Of a DNA stretch of 64,000 nt, positions 10,788-64,000 are shown piece after piece. A program made the translations under genes and the position numbers. This DNA comes from Squalus acanthias (Eukaryota): positions 95,048,001 to 95,112,000 of the forward strand of contig CM059431.1 of the NCBI GenBank assembly GCA_030390025.1, read 5' to 3'. The notes beneath the pieces are model-generated. The model saw only the letters and a program-made list of their open reading frames with translations, was not told the origin of the DNA and did not search any database. Positions within the stretch are counted from its first letter, which is position 1, and each line of letters starts with the position of its first letter.

Positions 10788-13885
<3,098 letters not shown>

Positions 13886-13888
13886 CAT

Positions 13889-16800
13889 GGCCACAAAATT
13901 ACCCGTCTTAGCATTACCATTTAAGGCCGATTTCAGCAGAAAGATGACGGCTGCCTCACTTCTGGCCACTTCTGGCATGGGCCGCGGCGGTCGCCATTTT
14001 GGGCAGGTAGGCAGCTGCCTGTGTGCGGCAGAAGAATTCAAATGAAGCAGATCGTGACATCAATCAATGCTGATTTGACGCATGACCTGCCATTTTGGAT
14101 GTCGCCATTCCAATCTACACCCTCTCCTAAACACAGACAGCTGACCATGCGTTCAGCTGAACTGAGGGACACCCCACCAGCGATATTTAAAGGGATCGCC
14201 AACAACTTTCAGGTAATTTACTTTTTGATTTCTACTGGCTCTGTATAATTTTGTGGAAGTGTTTGGAGCTTTCTGGAGTTGTTTAAAGTTGGTGAGGTGA
14301 CGGAGTGATGCAGCAAGTGGAGAAGGCCTTGCTTCTGAATTCAAGGATTCTGGTCAGACCACTTTCTCCCAGTCATGAGGGCTCTACTTGCAGTCCCCCT
14401 CGCGCTGCACCATGACAGATGAGAAGGAGCAGGGGCAGCAAAGAAGAGGACAAGCTGCTCGCAGAGTAAGGAGGAGGGGGGCAGGAGGGCTCTCTCCTAG
14501 CTACAATTAAGCCAGGAGCAGTGTATTCGGAGGCTCTGCTTCACCGGGGAGATGGTCACAGAACTCTGCCACCTCCTGCAACCAGACCTGCAGCCACAGA
14601 GCAGGGCGATAACAACACTGCCAGTGGCTCTTAAGGTGACCGTGACCCTCAATTTTTTTGCCACTGGATCCTTCCAGGCTAGAGCAGGCGACATAGTTAA
14701 CATCTCCCAGTTCGCCGTCCATCGCTGCATCCGAGAGGTCACAGAGGGACCTACTCCAGGAGAAGGGACTTCATTATCTTCTCTCTAAACAGAGAGAAGC
14801 AGGAGGCGCATGTGGCTTTGCCAGGATATCGGGTTTCCGCATGGTGCAGGGCGCCATTGACTGCACACACGCGGCTTTGTGGGCGCCGCATATCAATCCT
14901 GAGATGTACTGCAACTGCAAAGGCTACCACTCTCTTAATGTACAGTTGGTGTGCAGCCACGCCCAGCACATCTTGATGGTGAATGCCCGATATCCTGGCA
15001 GCAATCATGATGGCTTTATCCTGTGCCAGTCCGCTGTGCCAGCAATCTTCCACCCACCACGTCGAACCCATGGGTGGCTGCTTGGAGGCAAGGACTATCT
15101 GCTCCACACCTGGCTGATGACTCCCCTCCGGAACCCCACCACTCATGGCCAGCACTTATATAATGACAGCCATGCTGCCATGAAGAAGGCATTGAGCAGA
15201 CCAGCGGGGTGCTCAAGCAATGGTTCCACTGCCTTCAATGCTCGGGAGGAGCCCACTAGTACATGCTGGAGCGGGTGTCCCATTTCATGGTGGTCTGCTG
15301 CATTCTCCACAACTTGACCATGCGACCACGGGTTCTGGGACCACCTCAGGAGGAGAGGAGGAGGATGAAGAGGAGGAGGGGGAGGAAGAGGAAAAGGAGC
15401 AGAAGGAAGGGAGAAAGCAGGAAGCAAATTCCCGTTACGGATGGGCTGTCCATGCATGCATCATCATCATCATTCCAATAAATGAAACCCCAGTTAACCA
15501 TTGCTGAACACTTCACCACCTCACCATCCCTCAGTCACGGAACATCACAGTGTCCTCTTAGGCGCAAAGCTGAATTGAAAGCCACCACAAAGCAAACATT
15601 CCAAACATAATTTATAAATTATTATTTCCAATATTACATTACAAAGTCAACTAATCACCCTTGTGCATTCCCTTAGTGTCTGTTTTTCGTGTTTCTTTGC
15701 TTATTCTAGTGCTGCATGCAGTGCTACCCCAGTGGCTGCAGCATGGCTGATGGAAGACTGCTGACTTTCCATGGGGGTCACTGCAGATGGCCTTGCAGGA
15801 CGACCTCGAGCAGCTCCAGGCCTAGAACGCCCGGCTGTAGACTTGCAGCATTTCAGCATGGGGGGCAGCAGTCTGGGCTGGCTGGCTGACAGGCAGCAGC
15901 AAGGGCACTGGAGGAGTGGCAGAGGTGAGAGGACAAATACTGTCATCCTGAGAGAGGACAGCAGGTTCTTGCTACACGGAGCCACACCACACCCCAGGGT
16001 AGTGCCTTAGCATTCCTTGCCATCTGCTGGAGCACAGATTACTCGACTGCTGTGAGACCCTGCAAACCCCTTTCCACACTGGTAAACGCAGCCACGATGG
16101 CAACAAGCTGAATTTACATGAGACCAGTCTGAGCTTCCATTGCAGCACTCAGACGCTGGGTCACTTCCGCTTATTCTGCAATGGAAACTGAGACATTGCC
16201 CATCACACCCAGCATTATGGTTGGGTCCACAAGTGCTCTAATGGAGTTGCCCATCATTTCCAGGCTGGTAATCATGGACTCCAAGCTCTGCACAAAGCTC
16301 CGTGCAATGTTGGAGCTGGACTCCTCCATGCTCCTTGATAGTGACAAGAGGCTCTCTGGCAGGCCTGCCATTGTACCAAGCATTTCTGTGGGAATACTCG
16401 TCACCCTTCTTCTGAGGGCCGCAGCATCGATTTCCTCATCTGAGTCCTGTGCAGCAGAACTCGTGCACGAACTCACATTCCGGGGAGCTGGCACCAGAGC
16501 TACCCTTTCCCACTGGCCTGGCTGCAGCACACTTGTGTCCAGTGACTCATCATGTGCAGATCCTGCCTCTATACTACCATAGTGCCATTTTCTGAGCTGG
16601 TGCCTGGGAGTGCCAGATTGAATGATGGTGCCTCTTCTTCACTCAACTCCTCTAGTTGTTTGTGCACTGGCTGGACTGCTGGCAGTTCTTGGGTATTTGA
16701 AAGGAGAAAGCCACAAGGGTCGGGTCATGGTGAGGGGAGGGGGGGGGAAGCAAGATGTGCATGCTTACACCATCAGTGAGAAGTGAAAAGAGGTTGTGGG

Positions 16801-18112: not shown

Positions 18113-21100
18113 CCGTGATATGCTCCTCCTGCTATATGTGGGAAATCAGGGACGCTTCCTGTGTCCCTGACGACCATGTGTGTGGGAAGTGTATCTAGCT
18201 GCAGCTACTGATAGACCGCATTGCGGCGCTGGAGCTGCAGATGGATGCATATTAGAGCATTCGCGACACTGAGAACGTCATGGATAGCACGTTTAGCAAG
18301 TTGGTCACACCGCAGGTAAAGGGTGTACAGGCAGGAAGTGAATGGGTGACCAGCCAGGCAGAGTAAGAGGTGCAGGCAGGTAGTGCAAGGGTCCCCTGTG
18401 GCCATCCCCCTCTCAAACAGATATACCACTTTGGATACTGTTGGGGGGGATGAATTATCAGGGGAAGGCAGCAGCAGCCAACTTCCTGGCACCATGGGTG
18501 GCTCTGCTGCACAGGCTGGGAGGAAAAGGTGTGGAAGAGCTATAGTGATAGGGGACTCAATTGTAAGGGGAATAGATAGGCGTTTCTGCGGCCGCAAACA
18601 AGACTCCAGGATGGTGTGTTGCCTCCCTGGTGCAAGGGTCAAGGACGTCTCGGAGCGACTACAGAACATTTTGGAGGGGGAGGGCGAACAGCCGGTTGTC
18701 GTGGTGCACACAGGCATCAACAATATAGGTAAAAAACGGGATGAGGTCCTAAAAGCAGAATATAGGGAGTTAGGAGGTAAATTAAAAAATAGGACCTCAA
18801 AGATAGTAATCTCAGGATTGCTACCAGTGCCACGTGCTAGTCAGAGTAGAAATAGGAGGATATTTCAAATGAATACGTGGCTAGAGGAATGGTGCAAGGG
18901 GGAGGGATTCAAATTCCTTGGACATTGGAACCGGTTCTGGGGGAGGTGGGACCAGTACAAACGGGACGGTCTGCACCTGGGCAGGGCCGGGACCGATGTC
19001 CTAGGGGGATTGTTTGCTAGTGCTGTTGGGGACGGTTTAAACTAAAGTGGCAGGGGGTTGGGAACCTGAGCAGGGAGACAGAGGAAAGGGAAACAAGGAT
19101 AAAAGCAAAAGACAGGAAGGAGAAAAACAAAAGTAGAAGGCAAAGAATGTTCCCGATGGTCGGAGAGTCCAGAACCAGGGGTCATAATCTAAGGATAAGG
19201 GGTAAGCTATTTAGGACAGAAATGAGGAAGAATTTCTTCACCCAGAGAGTGGTGAACCTGTGGAATTCTCTACCACAGAAGGTAGTTGAGGCCAAGTCAT
19301 TAAATATATTTAAGAATGAGTTCGATATATTTCTTAAAGCTAAAGGTATCAAGGGATATGGGGAGAAGGCAGGTACAGGGTACTGAGTTTGGATGATCAG
19401 CCATGATCTCATCGAATGGTGGAGCAGGCTCGAGGGGCCGAATGGACTACTCCTGCTCCTATCTTCTATGTTTCTATGTTTCTAACTCAACGATTTAAAT
19501 CAAACATGGTCACAGTAAATAATAATTCATATAGGTCTGAGAGCGTTAAAAAACAAGCCTGAAGGCTTTGTGTCTTAATGCAAGGAGCATTCGGAACAAG
19601 GTGGATGAATTAGCTGCGCAAATAGAGGTAAATGAATACGATTTGATTGGGATTACAGAAACATGGCTCCAGGGTAGCCAAGGCTGGGAACTCAACATCT
19701 AGGGCTATTCAATATTTAGGAAAGATAGGCAAAAAAGAAAGGGAGGTGGGGTAGCATTGCTGGTTAAAGAGGGGATTAACACAATTGAAAGGAAGTATAT
19801 TAGCCCTGATGATGCGGAATCTGTATGGGTAGAACTGAGAAATAACAAGGGGCAGAAAATGTTAGTGGGAGTGGTATATAGACCTCCAAACAGTAATACG
19901 GAGGTTGGGGACGGCATTAAAAGGGAAATTAGAGAAGCATGCAGTAAGGGCACAGCAGTCATCATGGGTGACTTTAATTTGCATATAGATTGGGCTAACC
20001 AAATTAGTAAAAATACTGTGGAGGAGGAATTCCTAGAATGTTTACGGAATGGTTTTCTGGAACAATATGTCGAGGAACCAACCAGAGATCAGGCCATCTT
20101 AGACTGGGTATTATGTAACGAGAAAGGATTAATTAGCAATCTTGTTGTACGAGGCCCCTTGGGTCAGAGTGATCATAATATGATAGAATTCTTCATTAGG
20201 ACGGAGAGTAAAGTAGTTGAATCAGAGACTAGAGTCCTGAATTTAAATAAAGGAAACTACGATGGTATGAGGCGCAAATTTGGTAGGATTGATTGGGGAA
20301 TGTCACTCAAAGGGTTGACGGTGGATAGGCAATGGCAAACATTCAAAGACTGCATGGATGAACTACAGAATTTGTTCATCCCAGTGTGGCATAAGAATAA
20401 AACAAAAAGAATGACTCAACCGTGGCTAACAAGGGAAATTAGGGATAGCATAAGATCCAAGGAGAGGGCATATAAATTGGCCAGAAAAAGCGGTAACAAT
20501 GAGGATTGGGAGCAGTTTCGGATTCAACAAAGGAGGACAAAGGGATTAATTAAGAAGTGGAAAATAGAATATGAAAGTAAGCTTGCTGGGAACATAAAAA
20601 CTGACTGTAAGAGCTTTTATAGATATGTGAAGAGAAAAAGATTAGTGAAATCAAGTGTAGGTCCCTTGCAGTCAGAAGCGAGGGAAGTTATAATGGGAAA
20701 CAAAGAAATGGCAGACCAATTAAATGCATATTTTGGTTCTGTCTTCACAAAGGAGGACACAAATAACCTCCCAGAGATGCTGGAGAACATACGGTCTGAT
20801 GAAAGGGAGGAACTGAAAGAAATCAGTATTTGCAGGGAAATGGTGTTAGGGAAATTGACGGGATTGATAAATCCCCAGGGCCTGATAATCTACATCCTAG
20901 GGTACTTAAGGAAGTGGCCCTAGAAATAGTAGATGCATTGCTGATCATCTTCCAACATTCGATGGAATCTGGAACTGTACCCATGGATTGGAGGGTAGCT
21001 AATGTTACCACACTATTCAAAAAGGGTGGTAGAGAGAAAGCGGGGAATAAGCCTGACATCGGTAGTGGGGAAAATGCTAGAGTCCATTATAAAGGATGTA

Positions 21101-22430
21101 ATAGCTGAGCACTTGAAAAACAGTGACAGGATCGGACAAAGGCAACATGGATTTACAAAAGGTAAATCGTGCTTGACTAATCTACTGGAATTTTTTGAGG
21201 ATGTAACTAGGAAAATAGATAAGGGAGAACCAGTAGATGTGGTGTATTTTGACTTTTAAAAGGCTTTCGATAAGGTCCCGCATAAGAGATTAGCGTGTAA
21301 GGTTAAGGCACATGGGATTGGGGGCAAGGTATTGACTTGGATAGAGAACTGGTTGGCGGACAGAAAGCAGAGAGTAGGAATTAATGGGTCTTTTTCTGAG
21401 TGGCAGGCAGTGACTAGTGGGGTACCGCAGGGATCGGTCCTTGGACCCCAGCTATTCACAATATACATTAATGATCTAGATAAGGGAACTAAATGTAATA
21501 TCTCCAAGTTTGCAGATGACACAAAGCTGGGTGGGCGTGTGTGCTGTGAGGAGGTTACCGAGAAACTCCAGGATGATTTGGACAGGTTGGGTGAGTGGGC
21601 AGAAGCGTGGCAGATGCAATATAACGTGGATAAATGCGAGGTTATCCACTTCAGTGTCAAAAACAGAAAGGCAGACTATTATCTGAATGGCAATAGATTG
21701 GGAGAAGGGGAAGTGCAACGACACCTAGGTGTCCTTGTGCCCCAGTCGCTGAAGGTAAGCATGCAGGTGCAGCAGGCGGTGAAGAAGGCAAATGGTATGT
21801 TGGCCTTCATAGCGAAAGGGTTTGAGTATAGGAACAGGGATGTCCTGCTGCAGTTGTACAGGGCCTTGGTGAGACCACACCTTGAGTACTGTGTGCAGTT
21901 TTGGTTGCCTTATCTGAGGAAGGATGTTCTTGCCATGGAAGGAGTTCAGCGAAGATTCACAAGGCTGATACCTGGGATGGCAGGAATGACATATGAGGAG
22001 AGATTGGGTCGATTGGGCTTATACTCGCTGGAGAATAGAATAATGAGAGGGGATCTCATCAAAACATATAAAATTCTGACAGGTCTGGACAAACTAGATG
22101 CAGGAAGAATGTTCCCGATGGTCGGAGAGTCCAGAACCAGGGGTCATAATCTAAGGATAAGGAGTAAGCCATTTAGGACAGAAACGAGGAAGAATTTCTT
22201 CACCCAGAGAGTGGTGAACCTGTGGAATTCTCTACCACAGAAGGTAGTTGAGGCCAAGTCATTAAATATATTCAAGAATGAGTTAGATATATTTCTTAAA
22301 GCTAAAGGTATCAAGGGATATGGGGAGAAGGCAGGTACAGGGTACTGAGTTTGGATGATCAGCCATGATCTCATCGAATGGCGGAGCAGGCTCGAGGGGC
22401 CGAATGGCCTACTCCTGCTCCTATCTTCTA
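18113..22430 (+). mobile_element. Near full-length CR1 LINE: ORF1 (Cys-rich N-terminus, SGNH/GDSL esterase) and ORF2 (EN-RT) with a few stops and frameshifts
   Basis: ORF1 CSSC..CGKC at 18120-18195, GDSIVRG, GINNI and DGLHL in ORF 18383-19045; ORF2 pieces 19757-20923, 20830-21259 and 21332-22348; CR1 3'UTR at 22349-22430. Confidence 0.93.
19147..19483 (+). mobile_element. Short same-family CR1 3' end inserted in the ORF1-ORF2 spacer of the host CR1
   Basis: Nearly identical to 22109-22430 and carries a full (CTATGTTT)n tail; the flanks rejoin to match the uninterrupted spacer of the CR1 at 47130-47260. Confidence 0.88.
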
Positions 22431-23759: not shown

Positions 23760-24360
23760 TCATAGAATCATAGAATCATTCAACACAGGAGACTATTCAG
23801 CCCATCATGCTGTGCTGGCTCTCTGAAAGAGGTACTAATTAGTCCCACTCTCTTGCTCTTTCCCTATAGCCCTGCACATTTTTCCTTTTTAAGTATTTAT
23901 CCAATTCCCTTTTGAAAGTTACGATTGAATCTGCTTCCAGCACCCTTTCAGGCAATGCATACCAGATCATAACAACTCGCTGAGTAAAAAAAAAATCTTT
24001 TCATTTCCGCCCTGGCTTTTTTGGCAATAAGCAATTTTGGCAATTTTTGTGTCCTCTGGTTACCAATCCTCCTGCCAGTGGAAATAGTTTCGCCCTATCT
24101 ACTCTATCAAAAGCCCTCATAATTTTGAACACTACTATTTAATCTCCCCATAACCTTCTCTATTCTAAGGAGAACAATCCCAGCTTCTCTAGTCTGTCCA
24201 CGTAACTGAATTCCCTTTTCCCTGATGCTAGTCTTGTAAATCTCCTTTGCAACCTCTCCAAAGCCTTGACATCCTTTTTAAAGTGTGGTGCCCAGAACTG
24301 GACACAATACTCTAGCTGAGGTCTAACCAGTGATTTGTAAAGGTTTGCCATAAATTCCTT
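23760..24360 (-). mobile_element. CR1 3' part; its 5' continuation lies at 31451-31865
   Basis: (ATGATTCT)n tail at 23760-23780; LVRPQLEYCVQFW; 31451-31865 encodes the preceding KFVDDTK...ILGCINR segment. Confidence 0.85.
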
Positions 24361-25106
24361 GATAGGGCTGAATTTTGCCAGTGCTCAGAGTGCAGGTTTG
24401 AAAGTAGGAAACCCGCTGCCAACCCGCCTGCATGCAAGTCTCCCAGGTGTTGGGTCTGTCTGCGCAGAACTGACCCGACACCAAGCGGCGAGGGAGACAA
24501 TTGAGCTCATTAAATGGCTTGTTACAAGCCAATTTAATGCTATTTTGAGCATGCCTTGTAATTTTACGTGCTCCCCCATGGGTTACCCGCTGCTCGGGGA
24601 ACACGCCAGCTCACCCTGGCATGAGTTGAGTCTGCTTTGATTTATCTGATAACCCGACAGCTGCAGAAGTGGTATAAAGGATACCATGTTGCAGCTGTTC
24701 AGTTTCAGAGCTCAGAAACTGTTGGTTACTGAATTTGTAAGACATATAGGGGTAGAAATTAGGTCGCGCCCCATTTGGGGCGCAAATATCGTCCGGACGC
24801 AAATATTAGCGCCTGGCGCTAATTATCGGCACTGACAGGAAACTTCACTTTTACCGCCCCGGGAGGTGAGTGGAGCGCTAAAGCAGGCGCTGCACACCTG
24901 TCTTAAGGCGCAAAGGCCAAGGAGTGAGGCGCTAACTCAGTGCACGAGCGCAGCGCAGCTGCTGCCAGTTAGCGAGGGAACACAGACACACTGGCGCCGG
25001 CCACTTCTTAAAGCGGGGGGGGGCCACTTGCTCCCCAGCCACACCCTGCTCATTGCAGCCTTGAATCTCAGCCTGGAGAGACCTGTAATCCATTTTGCTG
25101 CCAAGC

Positions 25107-27036
25107 ATGGAGAGGGTGAGAGAACGCGCTCATCGCTTCACCGAGCGGGCCTTGGATGCTCTGGTTGACGCAGTGGAGCGCAGACGATGTATGCTGTTCC
25201 CTGAGAGTGGCAGGAGGCCTTTGCCACGCGAGTTCAGAAGAGTGTGGAGGGAGGTGGCTCAGAGCGTCTCCTCCAGGAGCATGGTGCCCAGGACCCATGT
25301 TCAATGCCGCAAAAAGTTCAACGACCTCACTCGGGTCGTCAGGGTGAGTGGCTTTTTCTCAATACCTCTCCATCCCTCCATCTCAACCTCACTCTATGGC
25401 CAGAGGGTCTTAAAACCCCAATGCACAACACTCATCCAACACCTATGGCCCTTTCATGAAACACACACACACATTCTACACTTTGCATACAGTAAGGGCT
25501 ATTCACCTATGGGAGGCACATCAGGCAAGACCATGGCTGTATATTGTAAGGGCTATTCACCTATGGGAGGCACATCAGGCAAGACTATGGCTGTATATTG
25601 TAAGGGCTATTCACCTATGGGAGGCACATCAGGCAAGACCATGGCTGTATATTGTAAGGGCTATTCACCTATGGGAGGCACATCAGGCAAGACCATGGCT
25701 GTATATTTACTCAGATGCTGTCCTTTTTCTTGCAGGCTAAGCTGGCTCATAATCGGAGACAGCAGCAACGGACAGGTGGAGGGCGGCTTCAGCTGCAACC
25801 CCTCAGCGATCTGGAGGAGCGCGTCCACAGGATTGTGGCAAGCCGGGTGATCGGTCCCATCGCCACTGGAGACGCCGACCCCGTTGTGGACAGCAATGGT
25901 AAGGTCATCACCTTTTTGTCCTCTGTCCTTCCACTTGTCCCTCACAATACCAGCCTTTGACACTTTCAATCCAACTTGCTAACTCGCTGCACTTATTCCT
26001 CCCTTACTGCCACCCTGTCCTCACGCTAAAGCCACTCTTGTACCTCCCTGCTTTCAGATGGTGATTCACCAGCTGAGGAGACGGGCCCTGAAGCTGCCAC
26101 TGGGAGTGATGCTGCAGCCGAGGAGGAAGAGGAAGCCGGAGCATCAGTGCCACCCTCTCCCGAGGAAGCCCATGCCCACACTGGGAACACGCCTTCCCCG
26201 GAGGGGAGCAGGGGGGAAGGGTCTGATGATGGTGAAGCTCCAAGACCCAGCGGGCTGCAGCAACGCCATGGGGGGGTAGGGAAGAACGGGGGCCTTCTCC
26301 CCAGAGGGAGAGTATGCCAGACACTCCTACTGCAATGGACGCAGAGGAGGAGCGGCTGATTGCAGAAATGAACACCCAGGCGGTGGGCATGCACACTGAG
26401 CTCATGGGTGCAGTGGGAAGGGTGCCCGAATGCATTGAGTCACTGGCAAGGAGTGTGGAGCACTTCGCTGTAGCACAGGCGGATGCCACACTAACGCTTA
26501 GTGCTGCAATTCAGTCACTGGCTGCCGTGATCCCACCTCTGACTGCTCTCATACAGACTCAGATTGAGGCCACGCGAGCACAGACTGCTGCCAACCTCGA
26601 TGGTTCGTGCACATGTCCCCGGGGCTGTCACCGCACCGCAGCAGGCCAGCAATCTGTTCTCCGGCAGATTGCTCCGGATGCTGAAGTGCTGCCCCGTGGG
26701 AGTGCCAGTGTGTCGGGCGAGCAGGGAGTTGCTGGCCTCTCTCACGATGACAGCATTCCTGCTGCCAACACTGTCACTTCTCCACTGCACTTGCCACCGC
26801 CTGTAGGACAGACTGCTGCCGCCCATGCAGAGTTGGTGCAGTCTGCAGCCGGGCCCTCCAGGCCCAGAAGTGGTCGAGGCCGTCCTTCAGGGGCATCTGC
26901 AGTGTCAGGGTCTGACGAGCAGCAGCCTTCCACCAGCCTTGCTGCAGCCACTGAGGTCCCATTACGGAGGAGCAGTAGGGTTAGAAGGGGGGAAGTGCGC
27001 AAGGGAAGGAGATCACCCTCGAAGGGCAAAAAGTAG
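25107..27036 (+). CDS. Harbinger Myb/SANT-like DNA-binding partner protein; predicted exons 25107-25343, 25736-25898 and 26058-27036, with one apparent 1-nt frameshift, probably in the G7 run at 26270-26276
   Basis: Exon 1 MERVRERAHRFTERALDALVDAVERRRCMLFP..VWREVAQSVS..QCRKKFNDL; donors AGG|GTGAGT and ATG|GTAAGG, acceptors TTGCAG| and TTTCAG| with compatible phases; the C-terminal helical region (ORF 26314-27036) is homologous to 15701-16530. Confidence 0.8.
25492..25707. repeat. 54-bp tandem repeat x4 in intron 1 of the Myb gene
   Basis: Unit GTAAGGGCTATTCACCTATGGGAGGCACATCAGGCAAGACCATGGCTGTATATT; one substitution among four copies. Confidence 0.95.
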
Positions 27037-27331
27037 GAGGTGTGCCAAAATGCTGGTCATTTTTTTATTAAAGGCCGAGGTTCATGGTCCAACTTTTGTT
27101 TAGTGTTTTGGACATTATCTCCAGGTTGTGAGAACCAGTTATGTTATTGACTGTTTTTTTTGTGTTTATTTCTATGAGTTTGTCATGAGGAATTGACACA
27201 CACAGAGTTTGTAAAATAAATAAGTTTCTGTTTTCAAAATATACATGGCTGGTGGTTGGAATTATTGGTGCCTTGGCCGGCTTAGGGGTTGCGTGCTGGG
27301 TTGATTAGTGTTTGTAGCAATGGCAGGGGCC

Positions 27332-28492
27332 CTAGAAGCGGCTTGCTATTAGTCGTTGACGGACGGCCCTTGCAGTTTGACCATTGTGGGCCGCCCTCCT
27401 GCCTTGGTGCTGCTGATGATCATCGTCCTCGTCCTCTTCCTCCTCTTCCTCCTCCTCCTCTGGTGGTGCTACAAGGCCTGGTGGCATTGGCTGGGTCCTG
27501 AGGATTGCCATGTTGTGCAACATGCAGCACACAACTACGAAGTTCGAAACTTGCTCAGGCGAGTACTGCAGGGCTCCTCCGGAATGGTCCAAACAGCGGA
27601 ACCGTTGTTTCAGCACGCCGATTGTGTGCTCAATAATGTTCCTGGTTGCTTGATGGCTTTCATTGTACCGCAGCTCAGCAGGGGTGTTTGGCGTACGGAG
27701 CGGTGTCATCAGCCAGGTGCTCAATGCGTACCCCTTGTCCCCCAGAAGCCAACCAACTGGCTGATGCGGTGCCTCGAAAACTTCTGCCACAGTAGTCTGG
27801 CGCAGGATGAAAGCATCGTGGCAGCTGCCCGGATAGTGGGCATTGACAGCGAGTATCACCTGTCTGTGGTCACAGACCAACTGCACATTCAAGGAATGGA
27901 ACCCCTTTCTGTTCCTGAATTCCTCTGCATTCTCTCGCGGAGCACGCAAAGCCACATGCGTGCAGTCAATGGCGCCCTGCACCATGGGGAAGCCCGCTAC
28001 CCTTGCAAAGCCCAGAGCACGGTCACGCTGCTTGTCTGGGGTCATAGAGAAAGAGATGAAGTCTCGTCTCCTTCTGAAGAGGGCATTGGTGACCTGCCGG
28101 ATGCAGCGATGCACCGCAAACTGGGAGATATTGGCGAGGTCCCCAACAGCAGCTTGGAATGAGCCAGTGGCGTAGAAGTTCAAAGCCACTGTGACCTTCA
28201 CTGCCACCGACAGAGACGTCCTGGACCTCAGCTGAGGCTGCAGATCTGGCTGCAGCAGGTGGCAGAGCTCAGTGACCACCTCCTTGCTGAATCGCAGCCT
28301 CCGCAAACACAGCTCCTCGGACATATGGATGTAGGAGAGCTGTTCACGATATACCCTGGGAGGGTAAGCTCTCCTGTACATGCGCCTGATGGCCCTCCTC
28401 CGTCTGGCCATCATTGCCACTCTCTGTCTGCGTCTCTGTATCCTCCGATTCAGCTGGAGCAGGACGACGCCCCCAATCATTGCAGCCCCCAT
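27332..28492 (-). CDS. Harbinger (HARBI1-like, DDE_Tnp_4 type) transposase, 386 aa, uninterrupted
   Basis: Catalytic triad contexts GAIDCTH, LLGDKGY and RNIIEHTIG; HTH region ATGSFQ..SQFAVHRCIRQV; NRKGFHSLNVQLVCD; PGSCHDAFIL; acidic C-terminal tail. First ATG is at 28492 (the ORF track starts at a TTG). Confidence 0.93.
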   Translation of the reverse strand: MGAAMIGGVVLLQLNRRIQRRRQRVAMMARRRRAIRRMYRRAYPPRVYREQLSYIHMSEELCLRRLRFSKEVVTELCHLLQPDLQPQLRSRTSLSVAVKVTVALNFYATGSFQAAVGDLANISQFAVHRCIRQVTNALFRRRRDFISFSMTPDKQRDRALGFARVAGFPMVQGAIDCTHVALRAPRENAEEFRNRKGFHSLNVQLVCDHRQVILAVNAHYPGSCHDAFILRQTTVAEVFEAPHQPVGWLLGDKGYALSTWLMTPLRTPNTPAELRYNESHQATRNIIEHTIGVLKQRFRCLDHSGGALQYSPEQVSNFVVVCCMLHNMAILRTQPMPPGLVAPPEEEEEEEEEDEDDDHQQHQGRRAAHNGQTARAVRQRLIASRF

Positions 28493-28686
28493 ATTCTCTT
28501 TGCCAGAAAAGTAATGAGGTACAGCAACTAAAGTAGCAACAAAGTTAGGATGAATAGGCAAAACTACCTCACAAAGCGTTGAGTCAATGTAGAAGTCTCT
28601 CTCTCTCTCTCCCCGAATCTCTCTCTCTCTCTCAGAACGAGTGGTGCATAAATGTCGACCACAGAAAAAGACAGGAAGAGGCCCCC

Positions 28687-28831
28687 TTTAAATAGCACCC
28701 CCCCCAGCCCCACACCGATTGATAACGTTCCAGTCTTCCGGTCGTTGGAAGCGCCAGGCGGTAAGGCAGGGGGCGCCACTCAATTTCCGCTACGGGGCGC
28801 CCCAAGGGCGTTGCACCATGGAATGACGTCA
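28687..28831 (-). promoter_or_regulatory. Candidate transposase promoter (TATTTAAA box and palindromic TGACGTCA CRE site)
   Basis: Minus-strand GCTATTTAAAGGGG at ~28683-28696 and TGACGTCA at 28824-28831; TATTTAAAGGG also precedes the genes in the degraded copies (~13033, ~14184). Confidence 0.5.
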
Positions 28832-30168
28832 CAATCTGCGCGCGCAGGTGGTCGCAGCGGTAAGTTTTAGCGCCGCCGCACAATCTCAAGTTAAGTTCTC
28901 GAGCGGCGCAAACAGCGCTGTGCCGGGGCGTTAGCGGCTTAACGCCCCATTAGCGCCCTCTTAAGGCGCTAACGGGAGGCGCAACCAAGTGAATTTTTAC
29001 CCCATAGAGATTTCTTTAGCTTGCAAGTGTTCAGAGCCAACTGTATATCCAGTGGCACCTCATTGGAACAACCTCTCTCACCATTGACAGAACGCTTCTG
29101 TCATCTCAACTGCAGCTGCCATCTGTTCCAGCAACACCGGCCCTTGGAAAAATCATACCTTCGTCCCCTGAATCCTTCCCGATCAGCCCCAACACCAACA
29201 TCACCAGGCACACCAACATCGCCAACAACATCACCAACAACATCACCAACAACAACACCAACCTTTCTGCCATCACCTGATGCTGCACAGGACAAAAGGC
29301 CTTAAGCAACTGATAACATTGCTGCCCGGGAGGCCAGCGATGGCATCACCATGGCCAGATTTACTTCACTTGATGCTGTACACCCTGGCAGCCACATGAT
29401 GCGCCAGGTTGACACCATCCCACACCAGCACCATAAAGCATCGTTATAATGTCCATGCCATTCCTTTCACACTCATCACAATAGCGGGGCCGCGGTGGGG
29501 GGGGGAGGGGGGGGCGCAAGTTATGTCTCAACATTCACTGGAACTCACTAAGACACTTCTCAAGGTGCGCTCAGATCTGTCCAATAAAGTGAAGTGTTGA
29601 AAATATAGCTTTCAATGTATGACAACATATTAACAAAAAACTTCACATGAACATTGGCTAAACCTCTCAAGTGCCTACCCTTGTGTGTTGTTAGTTGGTA
29701 TGAATGGATTAGGATGAGGGTGAGTGTGAGGGGTGGCTAGTGAGATGGGGAAGTGATAATGTAGATAGAGAGGGATGGGTGGAGGTGCAAGGTAAGTTGG
29801 TGTGAGTAAAGATGTGCAGGAGTAGGGTATGGAAGGCAGAGTGAGGGGGATGTGATGAGAGGCACAGCAGGATGAAGTTGTGTGTGGCTTTGCAGTAACG
29901 TTTTGTGATCTACTGAGATATTGAGAGGTTGGTGCCACTGCAGCCAGGGACTCCTGACGACATCCCTGCTTGTGCCCTCCTGTGCAATGTGCAACCAGAC
30001 TGCATTGATCTCCTGGGGAGGTCTCTTCCGCCCATGGGAAGGGAAGAGAATCTCCCTGCGTGCTGTGACTCCCTCCATAAGCATATGGAGGGAGTCATGC
30101 TTGAGCCTGGGTGCAGACGTGCACCTCTATGCAGTGCTTGTCAGTGTTTGCAGCACCTCAATGCTGTA

Positions 30169-34637: not shown

Positions 34638-35831
34638 TCATACAGTTAAATCGTCAGACCGAGCTCTACTGCTCGCTTTGCTTAACCTGCTCAATGGTCT
34701 TGTGTCCGCTAAGCTCTCGCTAGTTCCTGCCGGTGGCTCTGGCTCTGTCTTTTCGCCCTCTTCTTCTGGTTCTGCCAATGGTACAGGTTCTGATTCTGGC
34801 ACCAGTTCTGCTTCTGCTTGTGGTTCTGGTTCTGCCTGTTGTTCTGGTTCGGGATCTTCTTGCTGCTCGTAGGATAGCAACGTCTCGTTGTAGACTTTAA
34901 CCAGATCTTCCACCGGACCAACACTCTTAGTTTTCTCTTGGTAGCTGATGAAAGGAGGTGGGCTCACATTTACCCCAACCTCTGTCATTGGGAAGAAATG
35001 GGTCACTGGTTTGTCTTCTTCCAGGAGTTTGTAGCCTTTGGATTTCTGCACGGAGGGCACGCTGATGGAATGAAATGGCTTCTGCGAAGGATAGTCTACA
35101 TGCTGTTGGGCTGGCTCCCTAAAAGCAAACCTGATTTTTTTCCAGCCCAGGTGGCTTATCTCTATGAAATTCAGGAAGAGAGACACTGAAGCCACAGCTA
35201 GCATGAAAATGACAAAAACTGTCTTCTCAGTTGGCCTGGAGACAAAGCAATCAACTATATTGGGACAAGGCCATCTACCGCAGCGATACAATGGCAAGAT
35301 ACGGAATCCATAGAGAAAATATTGACCAACCACAAAACCAACTTCAAAAATTGTTTTGAAAATGATGTGGCAGATGTAGGTTCTCAGCAACGTGCCTTCC
35401 AGGCGGAACTTCTTGTTTGTCTTACTGGACTCTTTAATACCGTCATCTGGTGCTAAAGGCAGCCTCTCCTCGTTCATCTCTTGTTGTCTATTCATGTCTT
35501 CCTCCCTCTCTTTTCTCTTTTCCTCCATCCTTACGTGATGAACCGCATGGCCAACGTAGACCAAGGATGGTGTGGAGACGAAGATGATCTGGAGGACCCA
35601 CAGTCTTATGTGGGAGATGGGAAAAGCTTCGTCGTAGCAGACATTCTCGCAACCTGGCTGTTGGGTATTGCAAACAAAATCTGACTGTTCATCTCCCCAC
35701 ACGAACTCGGCAGCCGTGCCAAGAATTAGGATTCGAAAAATAAAGAGCACTGTCAACCACACTCTCCCTATCACAGTGGAATGCTCATTAACTTCCTCCA
35801 AAATGTTTCCCAGGAAACTCCAATCACCCAT
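34638..35831 (-). CDS. GJA8: Gap junction alpha-8 protein (connexin 50), 397 aa, single coding exon
   Basis: N-terminus [76 protein letters not shown]; extracellular-loop cysteines (C-x6-C-x3-C and C-x4-C-x5-C); C-terminus [17 protein letters not shown] typical of Cx50. ATG at 35831 (the ORF track starts at an upstream GTG). Confidence 0.97.
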
Positions 35832-35845
35832 TTTCACGGATGTAC

Positions 35846-35861
35846 CTGTTTAAAAGAAAAT
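35846..35861 (-). promoter_or_regulatory. GJA8: Splice acceptor of the GJA8 5'UTR intron
   Basis: Minus strand reads TTTTCTTTTAAACAG|GTACATCCGTGAAAATG: polypyrimidine tract and AG 14 nt upstream of the ATG, the usual connexin layout (non-coding exon 1 plus coding exon 2). Confidence 0.75.
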
Positions 35862-44219: not shown

Positions 44220-47200
44220 ACATAGAAACATAGAAACATAAAAGATAGGAGCAGGAGTAGGACATTCGGCCAATCGAGCCTGTTCCGCCATTTAATGCGA
44301 TCATGGCTGATCATCCAAATTCAGTACCCTGTCCCTGCTTTCTCCCCATATCCCTTGATCCCTTTAGCCTTAAGAAATATATCTAACTCCTTCTTGAATA
44401 TATTTAATGAATTGGCCTCAACTGCCTTCTGTGGTAGAGAATTCCACAGATTCACCACTCTCTGGGTGAAGAAATTCCTCCTCATCTCAGTCCTAAATGG
44501 CTTACCCCTTAGCCTTAGACTGTGACCCCTGGTTCTGGACTCCTCCACCATCGGGGACATCCTTCCTGCATCTAGTCTGTCTAGTCCTGTTAGAATTTTA
44601 TAAGTTTCAATGAGATCCCCTCTCATTCTTCTAAACTCTAGCGAATACAAGACCAATCGTCCCAATCTCTCTTCATACTTCATTCCTGCCATCCCAGGTA
44701 TCAGTCTGGTGAATCTTCGCTGCACTCCCTCCATGGCAAGAACATAAGACGACCAAAACTGCACACAATACTCAAGGTGTGGTCTCACCAAGGCCCTGTA
44801 CAACTGCAGCAAGACATCCTTGCTCCTGTACTCGAATCCTCTCACTATGAAGGCCAACATACCATTTGCCTTCTTAACCGCCTGCGGCACCTGCATGCTT
44901 ACCTTCAGCGACTGGTGCACAAGGACTCCCAGGTCTCATTGCACTTCCCCTTTTCCCAATATATTGCCGTTCAGATAATAATCTGTCTTCCTGTTTTTGC
45001 CACCAAAGTGGATAACCTCGCATTTATCCACATTATACTGCATCTGCCATGCATCTGCCCAATCACCAAACCTGTCCAAATCATACTGGAGTTTCTCTGC
45101 ATCCTCCTCACAGCACACACGCTCACCCAGCTTTGTGTCATCTGCCAAGTTGGAGATATTACATCTAGTTCCCTCGTCTAGATCATTAATATATATTGTG
45201 AATAGCTGGGGTCCTAGCACCGATCCCTGTGGTACCCCACTAGTCACTGCCTGCCACTCGGAAAAAGACCCGTTTATTCCAGCTCTTTGCTTCCTGTCTG
45301 CCAACCAGTTCTCTATCCAAGTCAGTACCTTACCCCCAATCCCATGTGCTTTAACTTTGCACGCCAATCTCTTGTGTGGGACCTTATCGAATGTCTTCTG
45401 AAAGTCCAAATACATCATATCCACTGGTTCTTCCTTATCTATTTTCCCAGTTACATCCTCAAAAAATTCCAGTAGATTAGTCAAGCATGATTTACCTTTT
45501 GTAAATCCATGTTGACTTTGTCCGATGCTGTCACTGTTTTCCAAGTGCTCTGCTATTACATCTTTTATAATGGACTCTAGCATTTTCCCCACTACCGATG
45601 TCAGGCTTACCGGTCTATAATTCCCCATTTTCTCTCTACCACTTTTTTTAAACAGTGGGGTTACATTAGCTACCCTCCAATCCATGGGAACTATTCCAGA
45701 GTCTATAGAATTTTGGAAGATGACCAGCAATGCATCTACTATTTCTAGGGCCACTTCCTTAAGTACCCTAGGATGTAGATTATCAGGCCCTGGGGATTTA
45801 TCGGCCTTCAATCCCGTCAATTTTTCTAACACCCTTTCCCTACAAATACTGATTTCATTCAATTCCTCCCTCTCATTAGACCCTATGTTCCCCGACATCT
45901 CTGGGAGGTTATTTGTGTCCTCCTTTGTGAAGACAGAACCAAAATATGTATTTAATTGGTCAGCCATTTCTTTGTTCCCCATTATAAATTCCCCTGATTC
46001 TGACTGCAAGGGACCTACGCTTGACTTCACCAATCTTTTTCTCTTCACATATCAATAGAAGCTTTTACAGTCAGTTTTTATGTTCCCTGCAAGCTTACTC
46101 TCATATTCTATTTTCCCCCTCTTGATTAATCCCTTTGTCCTCCTTTGCTGAATCCTAAAGTGCTCCCAATTCTCAGGTTTGCTGCTTTTTCTGGCCAATT
46201 TATATGTCCTCTCCTTGGATCTTATGCTATCCCTAATTTCCCTTGTTAGCCACGGTTGAGTCACCATTTTTGTTTTATTTTTATGCCAAACAGGGATGAA
46301 CAAATTCTGTAGTTCATCCATGAGATCTTTAAATGTTTGCCATTGCCTATCCACCGTCAACCCTTTAAGTAACATTCCCCAATCCATCCTAGTCAACTCG
46401 CGCCTCATACCATCGTAGTTTCCTTTATTTAAATTCAGGACCCTAGTCTCTGAGTCAACTACTTCACTCTCCATCTTAATGAAGAATTCTATCATATTAT
46501 GATCGCTCCTCCCCAAGGGGCCTCGCACAACAAGATTGCTAATTAATCCTTTCTCATTACATAATACCCAGTCTAAGATGGCCTGATCTCTAGTTGGTTC
46601 CTCGACATACTGGTCCAGGAAACCATCCCGTTTACACTCTAGGAATTCCTCCTCAATGGAATTGTTACTACTTTGGTTAGCCCAATCTATATGTAAATTA
46701 AAGTCACCCATGATAACTGCTGTAACCTTATTGCACGTGTCTCTAATTTCCCATTTAATGCCATCCCCAACCTCAACATTACTGTTTGGGAGTCTGTATA
46801 CAACTCCCACTAATGTTTTCTGCCCCTTGGTATTTCTCAGCTCTACCCATACAGATTCCACATCATCAGAGCTATTATCCTTCCTTACTATTGTGTTAAT
46901 CTCCTCTTTAACCAGCAATGCTACCCCACCTCCTTTTCCTTTTTGCCTGTCCTTCCTGAATATTGAATACCCCTGGATGTTGAATTCCCAGCCTTGGTCA
47001 CCCTGGAGCCATGTCTCCGTAATCCCAATTATATCATATCCGTTTACATCTATTTGCGCAGCTAATTCATCCACCTTATTATGAATGCTCCTCACATTAA
47101 GACACAAAGCCTTCAGGCTTGTTTTTTTTAACACTCTTGGACCATTTAGAATTATTTATTACTGTAGCCCTGTTTGATTTACACCCTTGATGTCTCTGCC

Positions 47201-48517: not shown

Positions 48518-48984
48518 ATAGAGTCTTTGGAGAGGCAGGACACTTAATTAACAAATTTAAATTGGGCTCCCATAGTGCAATTGGGAGCCCAATTTAAAAT
48601 TTACTCTTGCTGCCTGTAAAGTTCCCTCTCTTTTTTGGCCCGCGTGGCCCCTTTAATGGGCTGCACAGGCCATTCAAAATTCTGGCGTCTGCAGTTTTTC
48701 TATTTAAAAGCCGGCTCACTGGCTGCACAGAACCTGCAGAGTGTTGTATGGCCACACGGCCATGCAGCTTAAAGGGAATATTAGCTGCATGGATTTCCCA
48801 GGGATCGGGAAACCCGGCAGTGAAAGGGAGGCAGGGGCTCCTGGCTCTACATGGTAAGTGCTTCTTTCAGCACTCCTTGTGGGACAGGATGAGCAGGAGT
48901 GCTCCCACCAGTCTCCTCAAGAAAGCCTTCAGCCACCATCACCAGTTTCCTCCTCCCAGCCTTGATTACCAACCTCTCCCCAGC

Positions 48985-51900
48985 CTCGCTTACTGATCCC
49001 CCCCAGTCCCGATAACTGACCCCCCCAGCCCCGATTACTGACCCCCCCAGCCCCAATTACTGACCCCCCCCAGCCCTGATTACGGACCCCTCAGCCCCGA
49101 TAACTGACCCCCCAGCCCCGATTACTGACACCCCCAGCCCGGATTACTGACCCTCCCAGACCCGATAACTGACCCCCCCAGTCCCGATAACTGACCCCCC
49201 CAGCCGTGATTACTGACCCCCTCAGCCCCGATTACTGACCCTCCCAGCCCTGATTACTGACCCCCTCAGCCCCGATTACTGACCCCCCAGCTCCGATTAC
49301 TGAACCCCCCCAGCCCCGATTACTGACCCTCCCCCCAGCTCCGATTACTGACCCACCCCAGCCCCGATTACTGACCCTCCTCCCCCGATTACTGACCCTC
49401 CCCCCAGCCCCGATTACTGAACCTTGCTCCAGCCCCGATTACTGACACCCCCAGCCCCAATTACTGAGCCCCCCCGGCTCCAATTACTGACTCCCCAGTC
49501 CCGATTACTGACCCCCCCAGCTCCAATTACTGACCCACCCCAGCCCCGATTACTGACCCCCCCCAGCTCCAATTACTGACCCCCCAGCCCCGATTACTGA
49601 CCCACCCCAGCCCCGATTACTGACCCTCCTCCCCCGATTACTGACACCACAGCCCCGATTACTGATCCCCCAGCCCCGATTACTGATCCCCCAGCCCCGA
49701 TTACTGATCCCCCAGCCCCGATTACTGATCCCCCCCAATCCCGATTACTGACCCCCCCACCCCTGATTACTGATCCCCCAGCCCCGATTACTGACCCTCC
49801 TCCCCCGATTACTGACACCACAGCCCCGATTACTGAACCTCCTCCCCTATTACTGACCCGCTCAGCCCCGATTACTGATCCCCCAGCCCCGATTACTGAT
49901 CCCCCAGCCCCGATTACTGATCCCCCAGCCCCGATTACTGATCCCCCCCGTCCCGATTACTGACCCCCCACCCCTGATTACTGATCCCCCAGCCCCGATT
50001 ACTGACCCTCCTCCCCTGATTACTGACACCACAGCCCCGATTACTGATTCCCCCAGCCCCGATTACTGACCCCCCAGCCTCGATTACTGACCCCCCCAGC
50101 CCCGATTACTGACCCCCCAGCCTCGATTACTGAATCCCCAGCCCCGATTACTGACACCCCCACCCCCGATTACTGACCCCCAGCCTCGATTACTGAACCC
50201 CCATTCCCGATTACTGACCCCCCCACCCCCGATTACTGACTCCCCCAGCCTCGATTACTGATTCCCCCAGCCCCGAATACTGACACCTCCAGCCACGATT
50301 ACTGACCCCCCCAGCCCCGATTACTGACCCCCCCACCCCTGATTACTGACCCCCAGCCCCGATTACTGATCCACCCCAGCCTCAATTACTGACCCCCCCA
50401 GCCCCGATAACTGACCCCCCCAGCCGTGATTACTGACCCCCCCAGCCCCGATTACTGACACCCCCAGCCCTGATTACTGACCCCCCCAGCCCCGATAACT
50501 GACCCCCCCAGCCGTGATTACTGACCCCCCCAGCCCCGATTACTGACACCCCCAGCTCCGATTACTGACACCCCCAGCCCTGATTACTGACCCCCTCAGC
50601 CCCGATTACTGACCCCCCCAGCCCCGATTACTGACACCCCCAGCCCTGATTACTGACCCCCTCAGCCCCGATTACTGACCCTCCCAGCCCCGATTACTGA
50701 CACCCCCAGCCCTGATTACTGACCCCCCCAGCCCCGATTACTGACACCCCCAGCCCTGATTACTGACCCCCTCAGCCCCGATTACTGACCCTCCCAGCCC
50801 TGATTACTGACCCCCTCAGCCCCGATTACTGACCCCCCAGCTCCGATTACTGAACCCCCCCAGCCCCGATTACTGACCCTCCCCCCAGCTCCGATTGCTG
50901 ACCCACCCCAGCCCCGATTACTGACCCTCCTCCCCCGATTACTGACCCTCCCCCCAGCCCCGATTACTGAACCTTGCTCCAGCCCCGATTACTGACACCC
51001 CCAGCCCCAATTACTGACCCCCCCCAGCTCCAATTACTGACTCCCCAGTCCCGATTACTGACCCCCCCCAGCTCCAATTACTGACCCACCCCAGCCCCGA
51101 TTACTGACCCCCCCCAGCTCCAATTACTGACCCCCCAGCCCCGATTACTGACCCACCCCAGCCCCGATTACTGACCCTCCTCCCCCGATTACTGACACCA
51201 CAGCCCCGATTACTGATCCCCCAGCCCCGATTACTGATCCCCCAGCCCCGATTACTGATCCCCCAGCCCCGATTACTGATCCCCCCCAATCCCGATTACT
51301 GACCCCCCCACCCCTGATTACTGATCCCCCAGCCCCGATTACTGACCCTCCTCCCCCGATTACTGACACCACAGCCCCGATTACTGAACCTCCTCCCCTA
51401 TTACTGACCCCCTCAGCCCCGATTACTGATCCCCCAGCCCCGATTACTGATCCCCCAGCCCCGATTACTGATCCCCCAGCCCCGATTACTGATCCCCCCG
51501 TCCCGATTACTGACCCCCCACCCCTGATTACTGATCCCCCAGCCCCGATTACTGACCCTCCTCCCCTGATTACTGACACCACAGCCCCGATTACTGATTC
51601 CCCCAGCCCCGATTACTGACCCCCCAGCCTCGATTACTGACCCCCCCAGCCCCGATTACTGACCCCCCAGCCTCGATTACTGAATCCCCAGCCCCGATTA
51701 CTGACACCCCCACCCCCGATTACTGACCCCCAGCCTCGATTACTGAACCCCCATTCCCGATTACTGACCCCCCCACCCCCGATTACTGACTCCCCCAGCC
51801 TCGATTACTGATTCCCCCAGCCCCGATAACTGACCCCCCCAGCCGTGATTACTGACCCCCCCAGCCCCGATAACTGACCCCCCCAGCCGTGATTACTGAC

Positions 51901-63900: not shown

Positions 63901-64000
63901 CACCCCCGTTGACAGACCCCCCCCACCCCCGATTACTGACCTTCCCCCAGCCCCGACTACTGACCCTCCCAACTCCGATTACTGACTCTCCCAGGCCCGA
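48985..64000. repeat. C-rich satellite/minisatellite array, ~19-23-bp monomer CCCCGATTACTGACCCCCCCAG, >15 kb, reaching the window edge
   Basis: Near-invariant GATTACTGA core separated by variable C runs; kilobase-scale higher-order duplications. Confidence 0.98.

Follow-up and report, generated by a model that had tools for sequence, protein, structure and literature searches.

The question raised by this locus is whether the 64,000-nucleotide stretch of Squalus acanthias DNA analysed here (the window) carries an intact vertebrate Harbinger transposon that may still be able to move. The original prediction described a near-intact two-gene element, active or revivable, from a recently mobile family. 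The answer obtained differs in part: with a probability of about 85%, the locus is a single insertion belonging to a PIF/Harbinger family (PHIS superfamily) that is young, very high in copy number, and of the autonomous type, and in which the Myb-like gene of the window copy is broken.

Structure of the element

A PIF/Harbinger DNA transposon of 4,255 bp is present at positions 24749-29003 (Table 1). The inverted repeats at the termini (TIRs) and the 3-bp target site duplication (TSD) that had been proposed were both found, as the cores of the two ends are alike at 11 of 12 positions and ATA occurs on both flanks. Beyond the core, imperfect likeness with indels extends to about 25 bp; for PIF/Harbinger, PMC9179366 gives a length of 25-50 bp, which the 12-bp core does not reach. 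A contig from a DNA run passes over the insertion point, skipping 4,259 bases with 1 letter between, and the net 4,258 bases equal the element plus one ATA; this contig represents an empty site that is paralogous and carries one mismatch.

The element contains a three-exon Myb/SANT-like gene that is convergent with a DDE transposase gene. AATAAA hexamers lie downstream of both stop codons, and those on the minus strand, past the transposase stop, suggest that the 3' ends of the two genes may overlap. The same pattern is found again in copies that number in the thousands and differ in their flanks, and it is therefore above chance. The retention of many CpGs was confirmed as well, the observed/expected ratio being 0.55 inside the element versus 0.38 in the rest of the window. 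The window also contains an older fragment, 52% identical at the protein level.

Table 1. Features of the element and its borders (window coordinates)
Feature	Position	Strand	Remarks
Left TSD copy	24746..24748		ATA
Left TIR core	24749..24760	+	GGGGTAGAAATT; imperfect likeness reaching about 24773
Left subterminal TTAGCGCC/GGCGCTAA motifs	24806-24813, 24815-24822, 24928-24935		candidate Myb-like protein binding sites
Myb-like exon 1	25107..25343	+	79 codons; Myb/SANT-like DNA-binding domain, Pfam Myb_DNA-bind_5, E 1.3e-9
54-bp tandem repeat in intron 1	25492..25707		4 copies; copy number differs among sister copies
Myb-like exon 2	25736..25898	+	163 nt; AG/GT borders
Intron 2	25899..26057	+	GT..AG; splice joint in contigs of two probable RNA runs
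Myb-like exon 3	26058..27036	+	out of frame beyond the G-run in the window copy
G7 homopolymer	26270..26276	+	minus-1 frameshift versus in-frame sister copies (8 G, or 11)
Premature TGA, codon 234	26357..26359	+	met in the shifted frame
Second minus-strand AATAAA	27064-27069	-	downstream of transposase stop; putative role
AATAAA	27165..27170	-	possible polyadenylation signal, downstream of transposase stop
AATAAA	27215..27220	+	possible polyadenylation signal, downstream of Myb-like stop, read from the sequence
Transposase ORF	27332..28492	-	386 aa; DDE_Tnp_4; uninterrupted; D176, D252, E288
Right subterminal TTAGCGCC/GGCGCTAA motifs	28867-28874, 28950-28957, 28965-28972		candidate Myb-like protein binding sites
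Right TIR core	28992..29003	-	GGGGTAAAAATT on the minus strand
Right TSD copy	29004..29006		ATA

Transposase

The uninterrupted transposase frame with its DDE residues was predicted correctly, and its product covers the full Pfam DDE_Tnp_4 profile (PF13359, 1-158 of 158, E 3e-39); together with the Myb_DNA-bind_5 domain encoded by the partner gene, this match bears out the assignment to Harbinger elements with both gene types. Residues D176, D252, and E288 are those that we take to be the catalytic triad, by their agreement with the IS5/PIF motifs. The same residues occur at these positions in 95, 91, and 76 of 120 relatives, respectively, and D/D/E is retained in all 37 sister copies of unchanged length. 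A search among solved structures gave none matching the transposase by sequence.

The closest annotated proteins, which have the domain in common and are 45-66% identical, are models of sharks and rays named "putative nuclease HARBI1". Since none of them is more than 66% identical, they represent other families, and because each species has many paralogues, the models probably correspond to copies of transposons that annotation took for genes. This serves as a warning for annotation, where copies of this kind are filed as "putative nuclease HARBI1" genes.

Myb-like gene and its frameshift

The splice structure predicted for the convergent Myb/SANT gene stands, given that both introns of the window copy are bordered by GT/AG, the exon junctions are phase-compatible, and exon 1 encodes the expected DNA-binding domain, but the reading frame does not hold. 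The spliced frame ends at codon 234, where 459-460 codons are expected, because the homopolymer in exon 3 has only 7 G. In the 8-G frame, the conserved reading runs about 226 residues further, both in sister copies and in distant protein relatives, and the latter (33-34% identity) align unbroken over the G-run point. With the exon 3 product as query, a word-based homologue search gave no match, and a full HMMER scan recovered 12 relatives; one distant relative of this product bears an N-terminal Myb_DNA-bind_5 domain. At the G-run site, reads from thousands of family copies stack on one another.

As assembled, the window copy no longer encodes the C-terminal half of its Myb-like protein, a conserved part that was lost by a 1-base slip in the G-run, and the description of a near-intact two-gene copy has to be abandoned for it. 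What the copy keeps is both ends, an open transposase frame, and the exon for the Myb DNA-binding domain; as assembled, it could be mobile only if sister copies supply the Myb-like protein.

The GT donor of exon 1 (25344-25345) is kept in 37 of 40 sampled copies, is CT in one, and falls in a region missing in two truncated copies. The joint of intron 2 (25897->26057, 159 letters skipped, GT..AG, cut +1) is present in contigs of runs X14 and X19, which are RNA by the guess of the tool and whose contigs reach just 19 and 29 letters past the joint; in the DNA run X1 the joint is at depth 0. A contig of X14 (25056-25513) reads past the donor of exon 1 without splicing, and among the 15 listed of 44 joints none was found for intron 1. 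The in-phase variant of the G-run is present in probable RNA contigs of two organisms, and X21, an RNA run of raw reads from another organism, gave 3 partial reads in 12% of the run.

Target site

Both ends are present in 35 of the 40 sampled copies, and 32 of these 35 have matching 3-bp duplications, at different sites. The duplicated triplets (n = 32) are ATA (7), AAA (4), TAT (3), TTG (3), TAA (3), and others (12). TAA or TTA thus makes up 4 of the 32 duplications, and the family departs from the canonical TWA, the duplication that defines the PIF/Harbinger group in the strict sense according to PMC4482050. The middle base of the triplet is A or T in 33 of the 35 copies, and the surroundings are symmetric, with A at -7 in 31, C at -4 in 25, G at +4 in 23, and T at +7 in 33 of 35. 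The insertion target is the 11-bp palindrome A-S-W-C|WWW|G-W-S-T, which has C-WWW-G inside. The duplication could also be read as 5 bp long (C-WWW-G), if the ends gave up one G or C to it, but this was rejected, as the left C is missing in 10 of 35 copies.

Subterminal motifs and proposed mechanism

The window has 6 matches to TTAGCGCC/GGCGCTAA, versus 0.54 expected, and all of them are inside the two subterminal regions of the element. The family also includes a non-autonomous derivative of 893-895 bp, whose first 30 bases are those of the full-length element and in which all six motifs keep their positions, despite a left arm that is only 86% identical.

A mechanism can be proposed by analogy with Harbinger3_DR, whose Myb-like protein is described as binding the transposase, co-localising with it in the nucleus, and recognising a 9-bp subterminal motif (PMC9710019). 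The Myb/SANT-like protein would bind the TTAGCGCC motifs that recur in the two subterminal regions, contact the transposase, and direct it first to the nucleus and then to the element's ends. The DDE transposase (D176, D252, E288) would then cleave at the 12-bp inverted repeats and insert the element into the palindromic target, with duplication of its central 3 bp. A complex prediction that paired the transposase with the exon 3 product from a sister copy in frame gave no answer, with a score of 0.00 and an uncertain fold of the partner.

Size, coding state, and age of the family

With up to 2 mismatches allowed, the first 30 bases of the left end occur 13,211 times in the 3.7-Gb genome and a 30-mer of the transposase 7,145 times, while the reversed control gave 0 in each case. 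Long copies of the family thus number about 7,000, to which about 6,000 additional left ends are to be added; two of the latter were examined and found to be 0.9-kb derivatives. As estimated from the 30-mer counts, it occupies roughly 1% of the genome.

The 40 sampled copies, which are about 0.5% of the family, consist of the 20 best-matching loci and 20 loci taken by position. Their pairwise differences are 0.05-3.4%; the best-matching loci differ by 0.56-3.4% (mean 1.57%), and the copies chosen by position by 1.50% on average. The near-identical pair at 0.05% was ruled out as independent insertions, for the two copies have their flank in common and are 32 kb apart, as produced by segmental duplication. 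Terminal branches are 0-0.78% long (0.39% for the window copy), and the smallest are about 0.10% when the segmentally duplicated pair L032/L033 (0 and 0.06%) is set aside. No independent identical pair was found among the 40 sampled of about 7,000 copies.

A large fraction of the family is still coding. The transposase is open in 35 of 40 copies, the three-exon frame of the Myb-like gene in 16, and both ORFs in 14; 13 of the 40 have both ends and both frames open, the window copy not being included. In the tree of the copies, subfamilies follow one another in the manner of a ladder, and one of them carries a duplication of about 90 bp. NG86 counts gave a non-synonymous/synonymous ratio of about 0.55, equal for private and shared changes, and the ratio in both classes is read as mutation bias; selection on the master lineage was looked for as a difference between private and shared changes, and no such difference was found. 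Among copies, CpG sites are about four times as divergent as other sites.

The family underwent many transpositions in roughly the last few million years, and it gave rise to the 0.9-kb derivative. The recent mobility that had been suggested is thus supported, and siblings at 97-99% identity, whose absence would have refuted it, are abundant.

Alternative readings and present state of the family

The 7-G run might be a homopolymer assembly error, in which case the window copy would be fully autonomous with both genes intact. The Myb-like coding sequence is indeed open on either side of the G-run, each half in its own frame, and only the phase at the run is wrong; the run length varies from 7 to 12 among copies, as expected of an error-prone homopolymer, and the nearest relatives in the tree have 8 letters at this point (one with a single T within). 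However, the frame is broken as assembled, and a defect of the same phase-only kind, found in 11 of 40 copies, suits real slippage equally well; this reading is considered improbable. A domesticated pair of host genes of the HARBI1/NAIF1 type, to which the automatic label "putative nuclease HARBI1" of the relatives might point, is refuted by a copy number in the thousands, by ends with inverted repeats, by the duplicated target sites, and by the non-autonomous derivative. Horizontal transfer into the lineage followed by an explosion, for which Harbinger-Snek in sea kraits provides a precedent (PMC8437027), would fit the gap between the closest annotated proteins in other elasmobranchs (at most 66% identical) and the 97-99% identity within the genome. 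The contigs of runs from seven organisms, which hold 42-80% of the 31-mers of the element with its 300-bp flanks, were also counted in its favor. Conversely, the ladder-like tree with its successive subfamilies suggests long residence, the older fragment in the window and the related families widespread in sharks and rays argue in the same direction, and the protein database may simply be without this species. Such a transfer is regarded as unlikely.

Whether the family of this insertion is still moving is more evenly balanced. Even odds are given to its extinction, in which case the burst would date back some millions of years and the thousands of copies would be fossils, with frames still open only by virtue of their youth. 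The lack of independent identical pairs in the sample and the smallest terminal branches are what this reading would lead one to expect, and 35 of 40 open transposase frames is the prediction of neutral decay with 1-9 private substitutions per ORF (0.97-0.74). The equal ratio for private and shared changes points the same way, and the fourfold CpG divergence is consistent with methylated, silenced DNA. Yet the youngest copies would be rare in a sample of this size, 14 of 40 copies retain both frames, and contigs from two organisms, probably of RNA, show the spliced junction and a G-run that is in phase. It is possible, and put forward tentatively, that the family is still transposing in the cartilaginous-fish lineage, as a natural, unreconstructed two-component vertebrate Harbinger with its own target rule (not TWA) and its own 0.9-kb passenger, and with perhaps a thousand or more copies in which both frames are open.

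Comparison with known elements

As an insertion of a young, autonomous-type family, the element belongs to a two-gene Harbinger type that is already known, and intact vertebrate Harbingers have been found before, in sea kraits. The premise that vertebrate copies are mostly decayed is outdated, since fully intact copies of Harbinger-Snek number 269 in one sea krait according to section 12 of PMC8437027. Compared by description, Harbinger-Snek is similar in its young, explosive vertebrate expansion with many two-gene-intact copies, its solo-ORF and non-autonomous variants, and its RNA reads across coding regions, as given in PMC8437027. It differs in host class, in its share of the genome (8-12% in sea kraits versus roughly 1% here), and in that horizontal transfer was demonstrated for it and not here.

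The zebrafish Harbinger3_DR likewise has two components, a DDE transposase and a Myb-like partner that binds both this enzyme and motifs in the subterminal regions (PMC9710019), binding that is predicted here; its motif is given as 9 bp, whereas TTAGCGCC is 8 bp long with six sites. Also by description, Harbinger3_DR needed reconstruction, whereas natural copies with both frames open exist in this family, which thus offers a natural test bed for the cooperation of Myb-like partner and transposase. HARBI1 and NAIF1 belong to the same two protein families and are described as interacting physically (PMC9710019), but they are single-copy domesticated genes without ends, unlike this element with its ends, duplications, and thousands of copies.

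The target of maize PIF is the 9-bp palindrome CWC-TTA-GWG, and a literature search for this string found no paper. In PIF/Pong and the Tourist MITEs (mPing), ORF1 (Myb-like) and the transposase are both needed and mobilise short derivatives that share their ends, according to PMC2836001. Those are plant elements with a TTA/TAA duplication, in contrast to the degenerate WWW triplet found here. The NuwaII group of the PHIS superfamily has a 3-bp duplication as well, next to which C is favored on the left side and G on the right, but it is described as duplicating TNA (PMC4482050), while ATA is the commonest triplet here (7) and TAA/TTA account for 4 of 32.

A 2022 survey reported no Harbinger in the elephant shark, suggested a loss in cartilaginous fish, and called for other species (PMC9179366). 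The literature on shark genomes that was searched gave PIF-Harbinger only at class level, in repeat tables. The family described here puts a date on a burst of DNA transposition, in genomes regarded as LINE-dominated, and this single family, at roughly 1% of its genome, exceeds the 0.002-0.14% that Harbingers occupy in teleost genomes.

Element, Family and Age

The predicted Harbinger copy is real and its boundaries are right, as judged from its inverted-repeat ends and from the ATA that immediately flanks it on both sides, and it belongs to a very large, young Harbinger family. Its left end reads GGGGTAGAAATT and its right end is the complement of GGGGTAAAAATT, with an 11/12 match between the two ends and a weaker, gapped similarity that extends to about 25 bp. 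In the 3.71 Gb assembly, counts at up to two mismatches are 13,211 for the element's 30 leading bases and 7,145 for a CpG-free 30-mer within the transposase gene (reversed controls, 0). Two samples were drawn from the family: sample 1 holds the 20 best-matching loci (L001-L020), with the window copy as L001, and sample 2 was taken by position, as the first 20 exact matches of this internal 30-mer on contig C1 (L021-L040). Both ends are present in 35 of the 40 copies (18 in sample 1, 17 in sample 2), the remaining five being truncated, and matching 3-bp repeats flank 32 of these 35. Two pairs, L018/L019 and L032/L033, have their flanks in common and arose by segmental duplication rather than by separate insertion.

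Pairwise differences amount to 0.56-3.4% in sample 1 (mean 1.57%; 1.15% at non-CpG versus 4.96% at CpG columns) and to 0.05-3.1% in sample 2 (mean 1.50%). Terminal branches measure 0.10-0.78% and 0-0.56% (median 0.24%), respectively, that of the window copy being 0.39%, and the copy tree is ladder-like, with subfamilies in succession. If the neutral rate is assumed to lie at 0.5-2 x 10^-9 per site per year, a typical insertion would date back about 1-5 million years. On the strength of the small mean differences and of the matching flanking repeats, the recent mobility proposed in the original prediction is well supported, and mobility at present is somewhat less likely than not.

Features of the window and positions of the short derivative at two other loci
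Feature	Position	Strand	Remarks
Harbinger element	24749-29003		4,255 bp
Myb-like exon 1	25107-25343	plus	Myb_DNA-bind_5, E 1.3e-9
Myb-like exon 2	25736-25898	plus	GT/AG sites
Myb-like exon 3	from 26058	plus	GT/AG sites
Polyadenylation-like signals	27064-27220		both genes
Transposase ORF	27332-28492	minus	uninterrupted, 386 codons; Pfam DDE_Tnp_4, whole profile, E 3e-39
Short element copies	L041:123-1017 and 1029 onward; L042:143-1035
LINE remnants	1173-1943; 44936-47155; 24160-24351	minus
LINE remnant	18350-22348	plus
G-rich tract	10824-12861		~2 kb, 82% G, all six frames open
Older transposase fragment	14697-15317	plus	DDE_Tnp_4, E 2.6e-16
Connexin gene	34638-35849	minus	open, 403 codons; Connexin E 1e-101, Connexin50 domain
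Satellite	48955-64000		22-bp unit, ~690 copies, 85% match; reaches window end

Coding Capacity

The element holds two convergent genes. The uninterrupted transposase with D, D and E motifs is present as predicted, and its ORF is complete because 13 aligned relatives share the start position. Residues D176 (IDCTH), D252 (LLGDKGY) and E288 (R-x3-E-x6-K), which we take to be catalytic after the IS5/PIF motifs, are identical in 95, 91 and 76 of 120 relatives, respectively. At the column of E288, 18 of the 120 relatives, labelled HARBI1 and from sharks and rays, have K instead. The polyadenylation-like signals of the two genes would place their 3' ends in an overlap of up to ~150 bases, a possible source of double-stranded RNA.

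The description of the copy as a near-intact two-gene element stands only in part: the transposase is open and the Myb-like exons are bordered by GT/AG, but the three exons, joined by script, meet a stop at codon 234 (26357-26359), the long ORF running on to 27036 in a different frame. By alignment, the window copy has 7 G at 26270-26276, and sister copies with 8 (or 11) stay open for 459-460 codons. When exon 3 of an in-frame sister copy was translated and its product run in a full HMMER scan, 12 relatives scored at E-values no higher than 0.001, three of them with an N-terminal Myb_DNA-bind_5 domain, and relatives at 33-34% identity align unbroken through the G-run; the 8-G frame is the conserved one. 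The frameshift thus deprives the window copy of several conserved blocks and of the basic C-terminus, and its helper gene is defective as assembled. Both coding halves are nevertheless open there, each in its own frame, as in 11 of the 40 copies, and the G-run is either the main hot spot of inactivation or one of assembly error.

A tandem duplication of ~90 bp in exon 3 (element positions 1455-1544), G-run included, marks a subfamily of nine of the 20 copies in sample 2 (L021, L022, L024, L027, L029, L031, L034, L037 and L038), in two of which the Myb-like frame is still open and extended, to 488 and 517 codons. Stretches homologous to the Myb-like C-terminal half also occur in two other protein models, P0121 (801 aa; RING/B-box/PML coiled-coil) and P0130 (470 aa; immunoglobulin-domain); they may stem from the exonisation of transposon sequence or from chimeric gene models.

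The transposase ORF is open in 18/20 copies of sample 1 and 17/20 of sample 2, the three-exon Myb-like frame in 8/20 of each and both frames in 7/20 of each; 13 of the 40 copies combine both open frames with both ends. Scaling 7/20 to 7,145 suggests on a rough estimate some 1,000-4,000 copies with both frames open in the genome, drawn from few copies on a single contig that were picked through an exact 30-mer match. The share of open transposases equals the neutral-decay prediction, and the non-synonymous to synonymous ratio is alike for private (48:26) and shared (25:13) changes, so the open frames reflect the youth of the copies and are no demonstration of selection.

Four sequencing runs were compared with the element, and 15 of 44 joints were examined; none of the runs that contain the element is on record as RNA. 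In contigs of X14 and X19, two runs guessed to be RNA and of two organism codes, a joint excises exactly intron 2 (GT..AG), with only 19 and 29 letters past it; its depth is 0 in the DNA run X1. The G-run in X14 and X19 is two letters shorter, in phase with 8 G, and one X14 contig is unspliced across the exon 1 donor.

Target Site

The 32 duplicated triplets comprise ATA (7), AAA (4), TAT, TTG and TAA (3 each), CTT (2) and ten others seen once. Insertion flanks are palindromic (n = 35), with A at -7 in 31, T at +7 in 33, C left of the triplet in 25 and G right of it in 23. The target of maize PIF, CWC-TTA-GWG, resembles that of this family; a literature search for this string yielded no paper. 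A similar likeness holds for the C|TNA|G target of the NuwaII group in PMC4482050, which defines the PIF/Harbinger group by the canonical TWA duplication, a triplet found in only 4 of the 32 duplications here. The symmetric target would fit insertion by a symmetric transposase assembly.

A contig of X1 bridges positions 24746 and 29006 with a single letter in between and is thus 4,258 bases shorter on balance, the size of the element plus one triplet; it is a paralogous, unoccupied version of the repeated flank, with one mismatch. Seven insertions (L006, L007, L028, L034, L011, L024 and L032) lie in nearly identical sequence (AGAGTCATAGAGT), and the family may prefer a particular repeat as landing site.

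Short Derivative

Left ends are nearly twice as many as transposase segments, and an 893-895-bp non-autonomous element was found in two small genome extracts. Its first 30 bases are identical to those of the long element, its left and right arms are 86% and 94% identical, and ~140 bp in its middle are unrelated. The two copies compared are 98.5% alike, one having matching TAT duplications. At locus L041, two short elements lie head to tail, 11 bp apart. The short element keeps all six positions of the TTAGCGCC/GGCGCTAA motif, an 8-mer seen six times in the window against 0.54 expected, always within ~190 bp of the ends. The Myb-like protein of Harbinger3_DR binds a 9-bp subterminal motif, according to PMC9710019, and by analogy the motifs here are likely binding sites of the Myb-like protein.

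Relatives and Surroundings

All of the best protein relatives come from sharks and rays; their identity does not exceed 66%, and they are labelled 'putative nuclease HARBI1'. Runs of seven organism codes contain 42-80% of the 31-mers of the element with its 300-bp flanks. The element is a further member of the known Harbinger class; literature searches, with Dfam and Repbase outside their scope, found no description of this family. Harbinger went undetected in elephant shark (PMC9179366), and whale shark and grey reef shark have class-level mentions (PMC8455134, PMC12498223). In sea kraits, Harbinger-Snek accounts for 8-12% of the genome, and one species has 269 intact copies (PMC8437027).

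The window copy is located within repeated DNA. A second transposase of Harbinger type, older than that of the element, survives as a fragment that is 52% identical to the latter over 159 residues. Endonuclease and reverse-transcriptase domains occur in the LINE remnants, as does a GDSL-lipase/OSK-like ORF of the kind that some LINEs have as their first ORF. The G-rich tract is unusual low-complexity sequence or else an artefact of assembly, and a 22-bp satellite fills the end of the window. The connexin gene, ~5.6 kb from the element, is the sole clear host gene noticed in the window.
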